Positions 56,747 to 64,000 of a stretch of 64,000 bases of DNA are shown piece by piece. The stretch's first letter is position 1, and the number at the start of each line of letters is the position of its first letter. Below the pieces are notes generated by a model. That model saw nothing but the letters and a program-made list of their open reading frames with translations, did not search any database and was not told where the DNA came from. Origin of the DNA: Alphaproteobacteria bacterium (lineage in GTDB: Bacteria > Pseudomonadota > Alphaproteobacteria > JAJTHO01 > CANGXP01); NCBI GenBank assembly GCA_947457935.1, contig CANGXP010000004.1, positions 5,617 to 69,616 of the forward strand, given 5' to 3'. A program made the translations under genes and the position numbers.

Positions 56747-57856
56747 TTAATAAACCCGTACCACGGTATTCCCCGTCACCCGCTCCACGCGCCCTGCTAA
56801 TTCCAGTTCCAACAGCACAGCATGACACAAAGAGGGGGGCAAGTTCGCCATGCGAATCAGAAAATCGATGGCAAACGGGGTGGTGGTGAGGAGATTAATA
56901 ATTGCCTCCCGCGCCGCATTAAGCTCAGCCGCCTCAAACTGCGGAATATTGCCTGTTAGCGGGGGCGTGGTGGATTCTTTGAGCAAGCTGGGGTGTTGCT
57001 GTAACACAGCCAATACATCGGCGGCGGATTCCAGCAACGTTGCCCCCTCTTTTAGCAATTTGTTGGTGCCTGTGCAGCGTGGATCAAGGGGCGATCCGGG
57101 GACGGAGAATACCTCGCGTCCCTGTTCTGCCGCAAGCCGTGCAGTAATCAGCGAGCCAGATTTGAGGGTTGCTTCCACCACCACCAACGCTTCAGCAATG
57201 CCGCTGATAATACGGTTACGGCGGGGGAAATGCCGTGCTTGCGGCACGCTGCCTAACGGATTTTCAGAAACAACACAGCCATGGCTGATAATTTTCTCAT
57301 ATAACGCTTTGTTTTCAGGCGGATAGATGTGATCAACACCGCCTGCTACCACGGCAATAGTGCCTGTGGTGAGGCTCCCCTCATGGGCTGCGGTATCAAT
57401 CCCCCGTGCCAGTCCTGAGACAACCGCAAAGCCCTTTTTACCCAGATCTATCGCGATCGTTTTGGCAAAGCGTTGTCCGTTGCCTGAGGCATTCCGCGAC
57501 CCCACCAACGCTACACTACGCTGTTGCAACGTTTTCACATTCCCCAACGCAAATAATAGCGGCGGGGTGTCATCAATATGTCGCAATAACGGGGGATAGT
57601 CTGGTTCAACTGATGCGATCAACGCAACACCCGCTGCCACGCACGCGTCAAGCTCTTTTTCCGCACTCGCTTTAGAGGGCACGTTGAGGGGCTTTGTGCG
57701 CCCACCCCGTGCCGCCAGCATGGGTATTGCTTCTAATGCCGCAACAGCACTGCCGAATTGCCGCAATAACGCGGCAAAGGTTATGTTGCCCACATTCTCG
57801 GTGCGAATGAGCCGCAACCATGCCAGTTTTTCATGCGATGAGAGGGAAGATGACAT
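56747..57856 (-). CDS. dprA: DNA-processing protein DprA
   Basis: VGSRNAS, VSGLARGID.AAH, FPRRNRIISG, SGSLITA. Confidence 0.96.
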   Translation of the reverse strand: MSSSLSSHEKLAWLRLIRTENVGNITFAALLRQFGSAVAALEAIPMLAARGGRTKPLNVPSKASAEKELDACVAAGVALIASVEPDYPPLLRHIDDTPPLLFALGNVKTLQQRSVALVGSRNASGNGQRFAKTIAIDLGKKGFAVVSGLARGIDTAAHEGSLTTGTIAVVAGGVDHIYPPENKALYEKIISHGCVVSENPLGSVPQARHFPRRNRIISGIAEALVVVEATLKSGSLITARLAAEQGREVFSVPGSPLDPRCTGTNKLLKEGATLLESAADVLAVLQQHPSLLKESTTPPLTGNIPQFEAAELNAAREAIINLLTTTPFAIDFLIRMANLPPSLCHAVLLELELAGRVERVTGNTVVRVY

Positions 57857-57892
57857 TGTTCTAAGCGCTCTCAAAAGGGAGAAAAAAAGAAA

Positions 57893-57979
57893 CTGGACCC
57901 CTGCCTACGCAGGGGATTCGATGCGTTTCTGCATACTCACAGCGAATCTCTTGCGTAGGCAGGAGTCCAGAAATTCTTT
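57893..57979. repeat. REP-like doublet (class C)
   Basis: ctggacccctgcctacgcaggggattcg ... cgaatctcttgcgtaggcaggagtccagaaattcttt. Confidence 0.85.
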
Positions 57980-58018
57980 GGATTGCTAACCAGAATATTA
58001 AACAACGAAATTTTATCA

Positions 58019-58594
58019 TCATTTCTTTCCAAACTTAGGCTCGGTGCGGGTGAGTAGCCGCTTGATATTGTCCTTGTGTCGCCAAACAATCAAGCCGCTG
58101 ATAGCACTGCTGAGGAAGCCTTGCAGCACACCTGCCATCACGAACGCTAACAACGGCAGCACCGCAAACGCTGTGAGCGCAGACAGCGAGGAATAGCGCG
58201 TTTTATAAAACACGCCCGCCCATATCGCACAAGCGATAATACCCAACGGGGGGTTGAGTGCAAGCCAAATTCCTAAACCCGTTGCAACGCCTTTTCCCCC
58301 TTTAAATTTCAACCAAACAGGGAACGTGTGCCCCAACAACGCGCAGAATCCTGCAAGAGCGGGCAAAAGAGCATTTTCAGGATAGAGATTTTGGGCAATC
58401 AGTACGGCGGCTGCCCCTTTCGCACCATCTAATAACAACGTCAATAGCGCGAGCTTTTTATTGCCCGTTCGTAACACATTCGTTGCGCCAATGTTCCCAG
58501 AGCCAACGTTGCGAATATCGCCATAGCCTGCTAGTTTGCTGAGCAGTAAGCCAAAGGGGATGGTGCCGAGGAGGTAGGAGAGGAGGAGGATCAT
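58019..58594 (-). CDS. plsY: Glycerol-3-phosphate acyltransferase
   Basis: GSGNIGATNVLR, GH.FP...F.GGKGVAT, RH..NI.RL. Confidence 0.96.
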   Translation of the reverse strand: MILLLSYLLGTIPFGLLLSKLAGYGDIRNVGSGNIGATNVLRTGNKKLALLTLLLDGAKGAAAVLIAQNLYPENALLPALAGFCALLGHTFPVWLKFKGGKGVATGLGIWLALNPPLGIIACAIWAGVFYKTRYSSLSALTAFAVLPLLAFVMAGVLQGFLSSAISGLIVWRHKDNIKRLLTRTEPKFGKK

Positions 58595-58604
58595 AAAGTT
58601 TATT

Positions 58605-58669
58605 AGGCAAGCGTTGGGAGGCGAGAGTTTAGAGCTTTTCTATTGCCTCCCGCCTCCCAACTCTTGCCT
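58605..58669. repeat. Heptamer-tandem hairpin between hemJ and plsY
   Basis: aggcaag cgttggg aggcgag ag ... cctcccg cctccca actcttg cct. Confidence 0.8.
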
Positions 58670-58673
58670 TTTC

Positions 58674-59114
58674 TTAAAAGGGTTTAACAACCGCCAACAA
58701 CACAATCGCAATCATCAACACCGTGGGGACTTCATTGATAATTTTATAAAATTTGGGGGAACGGGTATTTTTATCGTTTTCAAAATCCTTGCGACACACA
58801 GCAAGGAATCCATGCAGCCCTGCCATACCCAACACCAGCAGTAACTTAACATGTATCCAGCCTTGCTTCATTAACTCTGGCATGAATAACAACAACCCGC
58901 CCAGCAAAAAGGTGAGAATCATCGCAGGGTTCATGATGATACGGAGGAGGCGGCGTTCCATTATTTTGAAAAGTTCCGACGTTTCAGAGCCTTTTGCTAC
59001 ACCTGCATGATACGCATAAAGACGCGGCAAGTAGAACAATCCCGCCATCCATGAAATCACGGCAATGAGATGCAATGCCTTAATAAGAGCATAATTATTG
59101 ATAACGAATTTCAT
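58674..59114 (-). CDS. hemJ: Protoporphyrinogen oxidase HemJ
   Basis: KALH.IAVISWMAGLFYLPRL..YH, MERRLLRIIMNPA, NEVPT. Confidence 0.95.
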   Translation of the reverse strand: MKFVINNYALIKALHLIAVISWMAGLFYLPRLYAYHAGVAKGSETSELFKIMERRLLRIIMNPAMILTFLLGGLLLFMPELMKQGWIHVKLLLVLGMAGLHGFLAVCRKDFENDKNTRSPKFYKIINEVPTVLMIAIVLLAVVKPF

Positions 59115-59115
59115 T

Positions 59116-59262
59116 AGACCTCTTGCAAAAGTCGCTAGGACGCTAGCGAAAATGGTTGTTTTCTGAGCATCGTAGCGCAGTTGACTTTTTTGTCAATGAG
59201 CAACGAAGCGGAAGGAAATCAGACATTTGCAGCAAGTCATAGTAGACTTTGGCAACAGGTCT
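59116..59262. mobile_element. RPE-like palindromic element, subfamily B3
   Basis: 147 bp; 16/18 terminal IR AGACCTCTTGCAAAAGTC/GACTTTGGCAACAGGTCT; fills the pgsA-hemJ gap. Confidence 0.85.
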
Positions 59263-59263
59263 G

Positions 59264-59815
59264 TTAGAACGCCCCTTGATGCTTAGCCGCACGCCAATAA
59301 TCAACAGCGGTTATCACCGTTAAGACAGAAGCCACAATCAGGGAAATTTGCGCGAGAATATAGAGATAGCTGGTTTGCCCCTGTTCGGCATAACTGAGCA
59401 ACAGTAACAACAATGCCGCAAACTGCGCCGTTGTTTTTCCTTTTGCCAGCATGGTTACGGGGAGTGAAATTTGCTGCCCTGCTGTAAATTCTCGCAAACC
59501 TGACATAAAAATTTCGCGGCAAATAATAACCACCGCTGCAATCACCGCGAAAACATTAAGAAACCCTGCATTAATGAGCAACATAAGGGTAACTGCCACA
59601 AGCAATTTATCGGCAATGGGGTCTAACATCCGCCCAAACGCTGTTTCTTGATTAAATTGACGCGCAACGTAGCCATCAAAAAAATCGGTAACCGAGGCTA
59701 TCAGAAAAATAGTGAGAATCGCCCAGCGTGCATCGTCAAACGGCACAAAAAAGAGCACCGCCACAATCGGCACCATCACGATACGAGAGAGGGTAAGGAT
59801 ATTTGCGAAATTCAT
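59264..59815 (-). CDS. pgsA: CDP-diacylglycerol-glycerol-3-phosphate phosphatidyltransferase
   Basis: N.LT.SRI, TDFFDGYVAR, FG..LDPIADK. Confidence 0.95.
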   Translation of the reverse strand: MNFANILTLSRIVMVPIVAVLFFVPFDDARWAILTIFLIASVTDFFDGYVARQFNQETAFGRMLDPIADKLLVAVTLMLLINAGFLNVFAVIAAVVIICREIFMSGLREFTAGQQISLPVTMLAKGKTTAQFAALLLLLLSYAEQGQTSYLYILAQISLIVASVLTVITAVDYWRAAKHQGAF

Positions 59816-59842
59816 TGGGCAAGAATAGCCTTGCCGTTTTAA

Positions 59843-60364
59843 CTATGCAATAGCACTCTTCAAAAACCCGAACAGATCTTCAAGGAAACTTTTGGTTTCT
59901 TCCGCTCGCTCTTTTGAGCCAAGCTGCATGTCTGCCAGTTTCTTGCCACGGTCGAGAATAGGCTGCACTTTTTCGCCGCCAATATCATCCGCCACCATTT
60001 GTGCTGCTGTAATAACCGCGCCCACGCTGTGGAATTTTGGATCTTTTTCGAAATCCAACGTGCCTCTGTCTGCCATATTTTCTGCTATCAGCATGAGATA
60101 CTCCGTGTCACCCTCAAGTTGATAGTCCAGCGCACCATTATCAATCTGCTCATCGTTAATGCTGAGGGTAATTTGCTTGGCTTTGATGCCTTCTGCCGCA
60201 ATGCGCGTTGCAAGCTCAATCAACTGCCCCATTTCCATCACGTCCATGGCGGCGGCGGCCACTTGGATTTGATTCATTTGGGTTGATACGTCTTCCAACT
60301 GCTCTAGGGTGAGAACTTTCAACGCATGCGCTGTAACTTTTGAAACTGAAAGAGATGTCGTCAT
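59843..60364 (-). CDS. Hypothetical acidic helical protein
   Basis: 173-aa ORF; no recognised family. Confidence 0.65.
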   Translation of the reverse strand: MTTSLSVSKVTAHALKVLTLEQLEDVSTQMNQIQVAAAAMDVMEMGQLIELATRIAAEGIKAKQITLSINDEQIDNGALDYQLEGDTEYLMLIAENMADRGTLDFEKDPKFHSVGAVITAAQMVADDIGGEKVQPILDRGKKLADMQLGSKERAEETKSFLEDLFGFLKSAIA

Positions 60365-60410
60365 TTTTTGTCATCCATTGTGATAAAAACAATATTATGC
60401 CAGCAAAGCA

Positions 60411-60426
60411 TTAACAAACTATTAAC
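60411..60426. promoter_or_regulatory. CtrA-binding consensus
   Basis: TTAA-CAAACTA-TTAAC, exact TTAA-N7-TTAAC, in a divergent intergenic region. Confidence 0.6.
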
Positions 60427-60448
60427 TACTTTTGATTAATAGTACAAT

Positions 60449-61300
60449 ATGTTTAATGCGGAACGCTATCGCCGTGACAGCTATTTTAATGCAGATAAAA
60501 ACACTGCAGATGCCGTTGTGCCTGAAAAGCAACGAACAACTCCTCTTCAAAGGCTTCATCTTGCCGTGAAGTTTTTTTTAGGCTGCGTCATCCTGCTGCT
60601 GCTCATCATCGGCGGTAAAATTACTGTCACAACAATCGACTATTATGCGTTTGGTAATCAAGAAAAAATCTATCTGCTACGAAAAGTATCAGCGTTGTTT
60701 TCACAAGACTATGAAAAAATCGAAGCCAAATCCACTTCTGTTGAAATAGGCGTAACCCGCCTTAATATTCCTGCCGCCTATATTATTTTCAACAAACCAC
60801 ACATTTTACCCCACTATCGCACTACCACGATGGAACTGTTATGGCGCACAGGAGATTCAGTTGCACCCCGTCACAGCCTACTTAATCTTGTGAAATGGCA
60901 AAATGATATCGCGTGGGTGCAGGTAAGCGCGATACCTGACGGGGACGAGTTTAACCAGCAAAAACGAATCCTTATCGACGACATTGCAATATCCCCGCAA
61001 TCACCCCTTAAAGAGGGAAAAAACTTGTTTGCGTCAAAAAGCAACAGCGCGTTCGATTACACAATTTTTTATAAAAAAGGGGAAATACCCACCTTATTCA
61101 AATGTGAAAAATCCCTTACTTTCCTCAAAAACTCGACATGCTCGGCGCACCTTATTTACAAAGACACGCTGTTATTAACATACACTGTTGCGCGCGATAC
61201 CCTTGACGAGTCGGAAACAATTACAAAAACTCTCAATAGCTTTTTCGCAAAGCATGAAGAAATTGAAAAACCAGCAGAAACTGTTGCGGTAGAGAAGTAA
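60449..61300 (+). CDS. Hypothetical single-TM protein with a periplasmic Cys pair
   Basis: 283-aa ORF; TM near aa 40-58; no recognised family. Confidence 0.65.
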   Translation: MFNAERYRRDSYFNADKNTADAVVPEKQRTTPLQRLHLAVKFFLGCVILLLLIIGGKITVTTIDYYAFGNQEKIYLLRKVSALFSQDYEKIEAKSTSVEIGVTRLNIPAAYIIFNKPHILPHYRTTTMELLWRTGDSVAPRHSLLNLVKWQNDIAWVQVSAIPDGDEFNQQKRILIDDIAISPQSPLKEGKNLFASKSNSAFDYTIFYKKGEIPTLFKCEKSLTFLKNSTCSAHLIYKDTLLLTYTVARDTLDESETITKTLNSFFAKHEEIEKPAETVAVEK

Positions 61301-61302
61301 AA

Positions 61303-63285
61303 CTATCCCCGAAAATGCTCGTAAATCTTCCGCGCGATCGCTTTGCTAATCCCGCGCACATTTTCTAAATCCTGTAGTGCTGCGCCCTTCACTGCCTTTG
61401 CTGAACCAAAATGCTGCAGTAACGCCTTTTTACGCGCTGCCCCAATTCCTGTCACTTCATCCAACGTATTCTGCGTAATCGCTTTGCTCCGTTTTGCTCG
61501 ATGGGTGGTAATGGCAAACCTGTGTACTTCATCGCGGAGGCGTTGCAGATAAAACAATACAGGGTCATTCGGCGGCAATGTATAGGGTTGCTTATTGGGC
61601 AGGAAAAACCGCTCGCGTCCTGCATTTCTATCAACGCCTTTCGCAATCCCCACCAGAGGAATATGCGCTAATCCCAATTCCGCCATTACTGCCATCACGG
61701 TGGAGAGCTGCCCCGCGCCGCCATCAATCAGCACCAGATCAGGTAAGGCGGGAGGCGGCAGGTGGGGGGCAAAAGTGGCAGCACCGTCCTCTCGCCCATC
61801 GCCTCCTACCTCTCGTCTATTCTGAACCGTATTTTCTTTCAGTGCCCGCGAAAAACGACGGGTGAAGACTTCCCGCATCATGCCATAGTCATCGCCGCCT
61901 TTGAAGGCGGGAGGCGGGAGTAGGGGGGCGGGAGTAGTAAGATTTTCCTCTCGCCTCTCGCCCATCGCCTCCTGCCTATTTTGAATGGTAAACTTACGAT
62001 AGGCGTTCTTGATGAATCCCTCTCTGCCCGCCACAATCATCGCGCCAACGGCAAATTGCCCCTGAATGTGGCTGTTATCATACACCTCAATCCGTTCGGG
62101 GATTTTGTCTAACCCGAATAATTTTTGCACTGCCGCAAGATTTTTTTCTGTTGAGGCAGATTCCACCAACTTCCGCGTCAATGCCTCTTGCGCATTTTTG
62201 AAGGCATGGTCTACCACCGCTTTTTTCGCGCCCCGTTGTGGCGTTTCTAGCACCACTGTATGCCCTGTTTTTTGCGAGAATGCCTCTTCTAACAGTTCCT
62301 TCGCTGCTATCTCCACATTGAGCAAAATAGCGGTAGGGCAGGGGGCTTCTGTATAGAATTGCGACAGAAAACTCTCCACAATTTCATTGAGCGGCGTTTC
62401 ACTGTCATGGTCAAGATAATAGGCTTTATTCCCATAATTCCGCCCACCGCGAAAGAAAAACACCTGCACACAGGTTTTGCTGGCTTGCGAGTGCGCTGCC
62501 ACCACATCCACCTCCTCCAACATGGCGATGTTCACATCTTGCTTGGCTTGAATGTGGCTTAATGCCTTGATTCTATCGCGATACAGCGCGGCGCGTTCAT
62601 ATTCTTGCGCCTCGCTTGCCTCGTTCATTTTGGTGGCAAGTTCCTCTTGCAACTGCCCACCCTTGCCCTCAAGGAAGCTCTTGGCTTGTTTGACGAGAGT
62701 TGCATAATCGGCTTGGGTAATTTTCTCCACACACGGCGCAGAACAGCGTTTAATTTGATATTGCAGGCAGGGGCGAGTACGGGCGTTGAAGTAACTGTCC
62801 GAGCACGGGCGCAACAAAAAGGTTTTTTGCAGGGCATCGAGGGTTGCATACACCGCTTGCACCGCCGCAAACGGTCCAAAATAATGCCCTTCTCGTGTTT
62901 TTTTGCCCCGATGTTTCAGAATTTGCGGAAATTTGTGGTCGGTCGCAATCAGAATATAGGGGAAGGCTTTGTCGTCCTTCAGCAACACGTTATAGCGCGG
63001 CTTGAGGTCTTTAATCAGGTTGCTTTCCAAGAGCAACGCCTCGTGTTCCGTGTGGGTGGTGATAAACTCCATCGCCACCGTTTCGGCAATCATCCGCTGA
63101 ATGCGATTGGTGAGGGCTTCAGGGCGTGTATAACTTACAACCCGTTTTTTGAGAGCCTTTGCCTTGCCCACATACAACACCTCGCCCGCTGCATTGAGCA
63201 TGCGATAGACCCCCGCTTGGTCACCCAGCGTTTTCAGGTAGTTTTGAATGGTGGCAACGCCACGATGAAGGGAGGAGGGGGGCAT
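61303..63285 (-). CDS. uvrC: Excinuclease ABC subunit C, with two repeat-derived insertions
   Basis: GVYRM, YVGKAK, C..Y.IKRC.APC, DNSH, IDGG.GQ, RDE.HRFA, HhH. Confidence 0.98.
   Translation of the reverse strand: MPPSSLHRGVATIQNYLKTLGDQAGVYRMLNAAGEVLYVGKAKALKKRVVSYTRPEALTNRIQRMIAETVAMEFITTHTEHEALLLESNLIKDLKPRYNVLLKDDKAFPYILIATDHKFPQILKHRGKKTREGHYFGPFAAVQAVYATLDALQKTFLLRPCSDSYFNARTRPCLQYQIKRCSAPCVEKITQADYATLVKQAKSFLEGKGGQLQEELATKMNEASEAQEYERAALYRDRIKALSHIQAKQDVNIAMLEEVDVVAAHSQASKTCVQVFFFRGGRNYGNKAYYLDHDSETPLNEIVESFLSQFYTEAPCPTAILLNVEIAAKELLEEAFSQKTGHTVVLETPQRGAKKAVVDHAFKNAQEALTRKLVESASTEKNLAAVQKLFGLDKIPERIEVYDNSHIQGQFAVGAMIVAGREGFIKNAYRKFTIQNRQEAMGERREENLTTPAPLLPPPAFKGGDDYGMMREVFTRRFSRALKENTVQNRREVGGDGREDGAATFAPHLPPPALPDLVLIDGGAGQLSTVMAVMAELGLAHIPLVGIAKGVDRNAGRERFFLPNKQPYTLPPNDPVLFYLQRLRDEVHRFAITTHRAKRSKAITQNTLDEVTGIGAARKKALLQHFGSAKAVKGAALQDLENVRGISKAIARKIYEHFRG
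61746..61818. repeat. Heptamer-tandem hairpin in frame in uvrC (copy 2)
   Basis: aggcggg aggcggc aggtggg ... cctctcg cccatcg cctccta cctctcg. Confidence 0.8.
61905..61977. repeat. Heptamer-tandem hairpin in frame in uvrC (copy 1)
   Basis: aggcggg aggcggg agtaggg gggcggg ... cctctcg cctctcg cccatcg cctcctg. Confidence 0.82.
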
Positions 63286-63294
63286 GAAGCGTGG

Positions 63295-63564
63295 TTAATC
63301 AAAGAGATCTGTATGCGTGCCCGTACCAACCAATACCAAATCATTTTCCTCTAAACGATACACTAACAGCCAATCTGGTTCAATATGGCATTCTCTACAT
63401 CCAATCCAATATCCTTTTAAGGCATGATCTTTTTGCGCTAAAGACAGGATTTTGCCTTGTTGGAGGCTTTCGATAATCTCCGTGAGTTTTTCTATTTTCT
63501 TCCCCCGTTTGACTGATTTTTTTAGATCTTTACGAAATTGCCCTGTGGTTCTAACGCGACGCAT
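63295..63564 (-). CDS. yafQ: YafQ-family mRNA interferase toxin
   Basis: FRKDLKK, DHALKG.W...RECHIEPDWLLVY, TGTH.DLF. Confidence 0.93.
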   Translation of the reverse strand: MRRVRTTGQFRKDLKKSVKRGKKIEKLTEIIESLQQGKILSLAQKDHALKGYWIGCRECHIEPDWLLVYRLEENDLVLVGTGTHTDLFD

Positions 63565-63827
63565 TATCCTTTTATCCCTAATTCTGCATATACCTCTTGA
63601 ATGGTATTGTATGTTGGCAAATCGGTATAATTATCCGCTTCTTGTAAGGCAGCACGCCTCTTTTTGCTCGGCAATTTCACTTCAAACGGTACGCCCTGAT
63701 GATACAACGATTGCCGCAACAACATGGTGATAACATCACTCATTTTTAGACCCAACTGCTTGTATAATAATTCTGCTTGCGCTTTAAGATCTGCATCAAC
63801 ACGCACATTGATTTGAGTTTTTGACAT
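63564..63827 (-). CDS. dinJ: DinJ/RelB antitoxin
   Basis: INVRVD..LK.QAE.....LGL.MS, GVPFEV; start ATG 63827. Confidence 0.88.
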   Translation of the reverse strand: MSKTQINVRVDADLKAQAELLYKQLGLKMSDVITMLLRQSLYHQGVPFEVKLPSKKRRAALQEADNYTDLPTYNTIQEVYAELGIKG

Positions 63828-63902
63828 TTCCCTATTCCTTTGCACTTTACCGTACAATGTATAGCATTTTTCTATAAAAGTCAAGATTTACCAAGCAGCG
63901 GA

Positions 63903-63970
63903 TTTTCGGTTTTAGGTTCTCGGTTTTGGCAAGTTCGTCCTTAAAACCTAACACCGAAAACCCGAAACCT
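63903..63970. repeat. Heptamer-tandem hairpin (CGGTTTT/AAAACCG type)
   Basis: ttttcgg ttttagg ttctcgg ttttgg ... aaaacct aacaccg aaaaccc gaaacct. Confidence 0.75.
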
Positions 63971-64000
63971 ATCTCCCCCCTTACTGATGCAACTGCACCA

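Follow-up and report, generated by a model that had tools for sequence, protein, structure and literature searches.

In the genome studied here the uvrC gene carries two in-frame inserts with inverted heptamer arms, and on sequence grounds the second of these (insert B) was most likely copied locally from the first (insert A), along with two codons of the host gene. The window, that is the whole 64,000-nt stretch of DNA that was analysed, holds uvrC at 61303..63285 on the minus strand, with a product of 660 aa that has the full domain set (GIY-YIG, UVR, RNase H and HhH). A profile search gave this product 547 bits on TIGR00194 for a cut-off of 285, and the RNase H DDH triad, as defined for UvrC in the accessible part of PMC10085695, is present as D403/D521/H588. 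The UvrC matches that carry names, at 47-56% identity, are alphaproteobacterial, and the sequencing runs with close uvrC alleles (X3, X5 and X6, see below) are freshwater metagenomes. Our account as a whole, which we hold with moderate confidence, is that A was copied locally into B in an enzyme-free manner and that both inserts are neutral passengers.

The two inserts and their neighbourhood

Insert A together with two upstream host codons spans 61906..61983 on the minus strand (78 nt, residues 435-460) and lies nearer the start codon; it reads as Gln-Asn, a left arm of 4 heptamers, a loop and a right arm. Insert B, at 61747..61824 on the minus strand (78 nt, residues 488-513), contains A's two host codons. 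The 81-nt spacer between the inserts (61825..61905, minus strand, 27 codons) encodes FKGGDDY and a conserved helix, and has TT at its start and TT at its end. The initial annotation had described two 73-bp elements. Their cores are found at 61746-61818 and 61905-61977, 159 nt apart, but the unit that is present or absent at B is 78 nt, because the two host codons are included in it. The peptides encoded before GDDY and before PDLVLIDGG, in the loops flanking one conserved helix, are as it had described them. Also, the two sequence motifs it had listed as shared were recovered as a 20-mer starting at 61788 and 61954 and a 14-mer starting at 61745 and 61904, each occurring exactly twice in the 1,825,837-base genome. 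The 20/20 match (plus strand, 61788..61807 in B and 61954..61973 in A) is present as claimed, except that it is offset by one heptamer relative to the ends of the elements; with the ends aligned, the two inserts agree at 54/78 positions.

The naming of the pair as sibling hairpins holds for the inverted heptamer arms, but these are degenerate, the unit gained at B reaches 6 nt past the left arm, and the folds are decayed, especially that of B as single-stranded DNA. Folded as single-stranded DNA with flanks, B has z values of -0.76 and -0.82, no better than shuffles, and A is moderate with -2.63 and -1.36; on the mRNA strand A has z -2.87 (0/200 shuffles as good) and B z -2.45 (4/200). The hairpin at 58605..58669, between a protoporphyrinogen-oxidase-like gene (PF03653) and plsY, has a heptamer unit of the uvrC type. 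Earlier called a related hairpin, it is real (RNA z -8.2) but a relative at family level, with local alignment scores of 26 to A and 24 to B as against 48 between A and B. An Rfam search over 57500-64000 returned 10 weak matches to miRNA models, all far under the cut-off.

Several other features were seen in this neighbourhood. A palindromic element of ~150 nt at 59114-59265, similar in size to the Rickettsia palindromic elements (RPE), matched 33 BLAST rows across the genome, with 7 more from the part of the congener examined, and a REP-like hairpin with 31-bp arms at 57893-57970 has 19 genomic BLAST rows at E<1e-3. A RelB/DinJ-YafQ toxin-antitoxin pair (63295-63884) immediately precedes uvrC on its own strand, and a heptamer hairpin of another unit type (63899-63964) stands just upstream of the antitoxin gene. 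The ORFs at 60449-61300 (283 aa) and 59843-60364 (173 aa) have no Pfam match.

Filled and empty alleles

Alleles are labelled G000 for the own genome, G001 for its congener, P for those from protein searches and X for those from sequencing runs. A uvrC match was found in 40 of the 41 genomes searched. An orthologue alignment had been proposed earlier as a check and was run; orthologues with loops of the same length and no repeat DNA, named then as the finding that would overturn the insert reading, did not turn up. The G001 gene, with 88% nucleotide identity over its length, is the most distant allele and is empty at B. It lacks exactly the 78 nt of the insert, and the two TT pairs found on either side of B in the window are both present at this empty site, so that B sits in its site without a target duplication. 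The insert at site A of the same gene is 12 nt shorter than that of the window; its left arm keeps the register but is of a different unit type, and its right arm is shared at the outer end alone.

Among the protein-search alleles, P0001, P0122 and P0123 have both inserts, and P0002 and P0003 have A alone, with exactly 26 residues missing. In run X6 one contig passes from 61743 to 61826 over only 4 letters, which leaves a net 78 nt absent; it is probably the same allele as P0003 and is counted once. The allele with both inserts was found, with no indels, on contigs of X3 and X5, and the substitutions of X3 (40 of 48 listed) reproduce the P0001 peptides exactly. At 8.5% divergence X3 retains the frame and the length of the window allele. 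Runs X1 and X2 gave partial cover only. An insert at site A is present in all 5 of the aligned close alleles. The window query did not find a uvrC gene in the 87% complete genome of G002, and no allele of the family with an empty site A was seen; it is from the loop length in distant homologues that A is read as an insertion. At 61829 a single X12 contig shows 30 loose letters similar to the 150-nt palindromic family of 59114-59265, a hint that loop B may have been invaded independently by a second, unrelated palindromic element.

Of the informative protein sites, 4 group the window with P0002/P0003 and 3 group it with P0001, and by this distribution the uvrC gene is a mosaic. With a mosaic gene, a single gain followed by lateral spread and a gain followed by precise loss are indistinguishable. 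A reading in which B goes far back in the genus, with precise losses in G001, P0002 and P0003, is in our estimate highly improbable. Hairpins can promote deletion, and this tendency would favour such a loss, as does the mosaic phylogeny, which allows it in the P0002/P0003 line. But after slippage between the TT pairs only one TT would be left and the reading frame would be lost, while G001 keeps both, and it is this most distant allele that is empty. Moreover, the origin of B as a copy of A is unchanged if the loss is granted.

The loops that hold the inserts

An AlphaFold model of UvrC built on an 82-sequence alignment (mean pLDDT 77.6) replaced an earlier one from a 5-sequence alignment (pLDDT 33). 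In agreement with the earlier description, the inserts lie in it on either side of one helix (466-493), A after the strand 430-434 and B after the helix starting at 466, and both are of low confidence, with pLDDT <50 at residues 439-453 and 489-511, a low value that partly reflects how few sequences are aligned there. Solved UvrC structures have neither insert, and the aligned blocks pass over them.

Loop lengths were taken from 98 of 110 loci that could be parsed, a set biased to close matches and including near-duplicates; the loci from a metagenome scan for close uvrC relatives were all only 48-57% identical and were used just for this purpose. Loop A ranges from 8 to 60 aa (median 10) and loop B from 7 to 58 aa (median 16) in these 98 homologues, loop A being at least 17 aa in 25 of 96 other homologues and loop B at least 24 aa in 23 of 97. 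This wide variation bears out the earlier suggestion of strong filtering for permissive loops. The long loops of other UvrC proteins at these places are unrelated to the inserts, and among the long-loop matches listed no other homologue came up to the period-7 score of the window or of G001, the scores being 16 and 18 against at most 14 for loop A, and 13 against at most 11 for loop B.

Insert B as a probable copy of insert A

The two codons before the left arm are Gln-Asn at both A and B in the window and Lys-Asn at both in P0001, P0122 and P0123. We take them to be host sequence because loop A without them would be 6 aa, under the minimum of 8 in the 98 homologues, and because a similar 6-nt flank is seen in just 1 of 84 census arms (1 mismatch, 3 registers), about the chance level. 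Also, each of A and B finds its best match in the other, both within a set of 66 elements (48 against 40 and 37 for the next) and when every 78-nt window of the genome is compared (54 against 50 and 45 for the next other locus). In the X3 allele, as far as the 40 of 48 substitutions listed allow, A and B agree in register at 64/78 positions, which divide into 6/6 in the flank, 25/32 in the left arm, 4/10 in the loop and 29/30 in the right arm. Genome-wide, however, the score of A with B comes no higher than place 62 among 2145 pairs, since another unit type is more homogeneous. Of the 4 pairs of separate elements less than 1 kb apart, 2 are unalike, and a general trend of similarity with proximity, sought genome-wide, was not found beyond the uvrC and ileS pairs. 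The host codons of A carried along, the equal length and frame, the mutual best match and the clean empty site at B together make a local copy of A the most likely source of B.

The initial annotation had offered local hopping as an explanation. Its local part stands, but hopping in the sense of transposition does not fit as well as copying. B has no target-site duplication and includes host flank. The HUH/RAYT transposase family PF01797 gave 0 matches in this 99.58% complete genome, and GxxExxY (PF13366) was not found in it either. The opposite explanation, that a donor elsewhere gave rise to A and B in separate insertions which permissive-loop filtering alone has brought together, draws on the long loops of other lineages at both sites (25/96 and 23/97 homologues) and on the loose X12 letters at 61829 that resemble the 150-nt palindromic family. 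It leaves the shared in-register host codons, the equal length of 78 nt and the mutual best match unexplained, and we consider it improbable and largely refuted by the flank capture.

For the local copy we propose the following course. A heptamer-class hairpin would have entered loop A before the split from G001, a timing that is observed, by an agent that we can only presume. Then 78 nt, comprising A and its two upstream host codons, would have been copied 159 nt downstream between two TT pairs; the outcome, with no net duplication, is observed, and the likely route is replication template switching at the TT microhomologies, either as a double switch or as an in-frame tandem duplication of 159 nt followed by an in-frame deletion of 81 nt. 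Both the donor and the target site have TT on each side of the 78 nt, and the present layout would result exactly if a polymerase jumped 159 nt backwards on reaching the first TT and 81 nt ahead on reaching the second. The 159-nt and 81-nt steps are both whole numbers of codons. A tandem-duplication intermediate was not seen in the 5 close alleles aligned. As TT is a microhomology of just 2 nt, it would suit other routes equally, for example a trans-acting copy-paste that carries a 6-nt flank.

Probable exchange between the two copies

The 20/20 block is most likely younger than the duplication, A having probably taken a short tract from B. At letters 61963 and 61964 of A the window differs from the state shared by X3 and X6, which by our reading of the alignment G001 also has, and exactly these two letters match B; they are the window-specific letters of A that create the 20/20 match, which is why we place the donor at B. 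When A is reverted at 61963/61964 to the X3/X6 state, the longest A-B match goes down to 12 nt. Only 1 in 27,027 substitution pairs restores the 20-nt match (1 in 693 adjacent pairs), a figure that overstates the case because the test was designed after the pattern had been seen. The diagnostic 12-mer occurs in A and B only in the genome, and was absent from the part of G001 examined. In the course proposed above, neighbouring copies would thus trade short tracts by gene conversion, here one heptamer off register. The agreement of the flank codons within each allele (Gln/Gln against Lys/Lys) is by itself a weak sign of conversion, as by a rough estimate it has about a 1 in 5 chance of arising anyway.

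Effect on UvrC

Of the 52 insert residues, 11 differ from P0001, as against 20 of 608 elsewhere in the protein (Fisher p 6e-6), so the inserted peptides change ~6x faster than the remainder of UvrC in this comparison. Insert A compared with P0002/P0003 differs at 1 of 26 residues, not distinguishable from the remainder. Because these loops vary widely in other UvrC proteins and the peptides change ~6x faster, both inserts are likely to be neutral passengers, that is harmless extra loops. As the last step of the proposed course, selection would hold only the frame and the loop position, and UvrC would still cut DNA with two floppy loops of 26 residues. The length and frame kept between the window and X3 would also fit weak selection on loop length.

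That the inserts are functional, either as adaptive protein loops or as mRNA hairpins that are cut by RNase III and tune uvrC expression, is very unlikely in our judgement. Two diverged alleles do keep frame and length with no indels, the mRNA strands of both inserts fold better than most shuffles, and in the available part of PMC4990558 the stem of the related Coxiella intervening sequence is cleaved by RNase III at its first heptamer. Set against this are the faster peptide change, the G001 insert A with its different left arm and shortened right arm, and the absence of B from three alleles. Also, A and B are more decayed than the intergenic hairpin (z -2.9 and -2.5 against -8.2).

The heptamer hairpins in the genome

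Arms of the uvrC type were found 30 times at 24 loci, and 0 times in a codon-block shuffle. A scan blind to sequence found 55 arrays of period 7 as against 2, 3, 4 and 4 for periods 5, 8, 10 and 11; periods 6, 9 and 12 gave 23, 19 and 24 arrays, since coding repeats are expected there. A wider census with several unit types counted 65 loci here, 104 in 1.0 Mb of G001 and 0 in the shuffle. In-frame hairpins were also found in ORFs that by their Pfam names are glyQ (GlyQ-GlyS), uvrA, a cytidylyltransferase that from its motifs we take to be KdsB, and glutamate synthase (gltB). With uvrA (L261, C50:3965-4049 of G000) two subunits of the excision nuclease are affected, and at L260 (C5:19196-19261) glyQ and glyS lie in one open frame of 1130 aa. 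The ileS gene (G000 C51:8542-9179; L257, L258) has two in-frame hairpins of the same type, present in G001 and absent in G002. Over ~100 residues the first half of the G001 IleS is nearer to G002 than to G000, suggestive of recombination.

Both of the PF05635 four-helix-bundle genes of the genome (2/2) are bracketed by inverted heptamer arms, one cassette at C12:9416-9855 (L031) with arms of the uvrC type and the other at C10:33106-33534 with arms of another unit type. The C12 protein has a weak match to Avd (E 0.0012, 19 bits for a cut-off of 80). From our reading of the ORFs, this cassette presumably sits between the genes for the acetolactate synthase subunits; the right arm of the cassette reads in frame into the beginning of the ORF downstream, and an orthologue was not found in the 1.0 of 1.7 Mb of G001 examined. 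An orthologous cassette stands between iscS and iscU in G000, G001, G002 and G004, and the G004 copy has a different unit. A PF05635 match was absent in 2 of the 5 relatives searched.

Other forms of the repeat were seen beside these. In G001 a four-helix-bundle cassette with a nested palindrome lies between two pyruvate dehydrogenase-like genes (L053:1260-1880), and its G000 counterpart (C10:40894-41440) is of unrelated sequence with a different ORF. A larger element with its own terminal repeats has recently expanded in G001 (L168, L152, L156, L203, L211 and others); it contains a heptamer hairpin of variable unit number and is absent at the orthologous G000 sites. At L161:642-1118 of G001 half of a heptamer hairpin is amplified in tandem with a period of ~57-64 nt, 412 nt longer than in G000. 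A uvrC-type hairpin at C1:109573-109692 of G000, after a T run, has a long 4-nt microsatellite as its loop and is absent there in G001.

Change of unit at fixed sites

Orthologous flanks in G001 were found for 17 of the 65 loci, which represent 16 sites as two rows belong to one cassette; 46 of the 65 had no orthologous flanks in the part of G001 used, and 2 lay at contig ends. In the reverse comparison of the 104 loci, 53 had no orthologous flanks and 5 were at ends, and the intergenic empty and filled junctions were too diverged for target duplications to be read. By eye, 15 of the 16 sites are filled in both genomes and 1 in G000 only. The unit type, judged also by eye and with no control, differs at 9 of the 15 doubly filled sites and is the same or nearly the same at 6. 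At C4:35565 the loop is still alignable although the unit has changed on both arms, and site A in G001 is a one-arm switch. The congener comparison thus has the hairpins keeping their place while the unit changes. Slippage, hairpin-templated correction and ectopic conversion could switch units; a dedicated activity is the bolder reading.

Such an activity enters the origin of B as well, if B was placed by the machinery that spreads this class, a four-helix-bundle protein with a polymerase or recombinase which would act locally, carry the flank and also rewrite arms. We regard this as possible but unlikely. Both PF05635 genes are bracketed by arms, one set of the uvrC unit type; the orthologous iscS-iscU cassette has a different unit in G004; units differ at 9 of 15 sites, several on both arms; the C12 protein matches Avd weakly; and ileS also has two same-type hairpins, both absent in G002. 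But PF05635 proteins have no known activity according to the accessible part of PMC4990558, arm slippage together with hairpin-templated correction and ectopic conversion could rewrite arms equally, and the captured flank is host sequence that does not recur at other copies. More doubtful still is the general form of this idea, in which the hairpins would be footprints of an undescribed selfish system whose Avd-like four-helix-bundle protein, with a host or element polymerase, copies hairpins to nearby sites together with some bases of flank and rewrites the units on both arms of existing hairpins; if so, a local copying and a subsequent rewriting would each have left one trace in the uvrC pair. 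We retain the enzyme-free local copy as the preferred origin of B.

Comparison with known repeat systems

The effect of the inserts on UvrC is probably nil, and their interest lies in the mechanism. As far as the available parts of PMC4679880 and PMC4692102 go, counts of heptamer repeats exist for many bacteria without a known route of spreading, and the uvrC pair constrains any model to insertion without target duplication, short microhomology and local templates. In the mostly open-access literature searched we found nothing on heptamer hairpins copied within a gene with host flank, or on unit switching at sites that stay fixed. Work on the short dispersed repeats of cyanobacteria may bear on heptamer copying. 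REP/REPIN elements with RAYT are short non-coding hairpins that insert without obvious target duplication; the uvrC inserts differ from them in having arms of tandem heptamers rather than a conserved REP, and the genome has no PF01797. A classical MITE would bring a target-site duplication, which is not seen here, the net gain at B being exactly 78 nt.

The heptamer repeats of Xanthomonas and Nostoc (PMC4692102) and of Beggiatoaceae (PMC4679880), as described in the accessible text, have ~4 units per array, often in convergent inverted pairs, and are mostly intergenic with a minority in genes. The present class resembles the Xanthomonas/Nostoc type in its about four tandem 7-nt units, inverted pairs and dispersal in the genome, and differs in having several interchangeable types where those genomes have one dominant unit. 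The same text, as far as it is available, has no description of empty and filled sites, of flank capture or of a link to four-helix-bundle proteins. The 23S rRNA intervening sequence of Coxiella burnetii (S23p, PF05635), in the available part of PMC4990558, has heptamers by a four-helix-bundle ORF; the likeness, tandem heptamers and a PF05635 ORF within inverted repeats, holds for the two cassettes of this genome at C12 and C10. A and B differ from it in that they have no ORF of their own, lie in mRNA and not in rRNA, and keep the frame.

The Rickettsia palindromic elements, according to the part of PMC10969869 that is accessible, are in-frame palindromic repeats of ~150 bp in housekeeping genes. 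The likeness is that the present hairpins are also in frame in unrelated alphaproteobacterial housekeeping genes (uvrC, ileS, glyQ, uvrA, kdsB, gltB) and are read through as extra peptide. The uvrC inserts differ in their length of 73-78 nt as against ~150, in their tandem 7-nt arms that change type, in having no conserved peptide (11/52 residues differ) and in the probable origin of one copy from the other next to it, host flank included. The 20 NCBIfam families listed for UvrC at E 0.01 do not include an RPE model. The inserts thus behave as an RPE-type coding insertion yet are, by sequence features, neither RPE nor classical MITE nor REPIN. In-frame palindromic repeats are already known from Rickettsia, and what is new here are the exact junctions, the capture of flank and the likely exchange of sequence between sibling copies.
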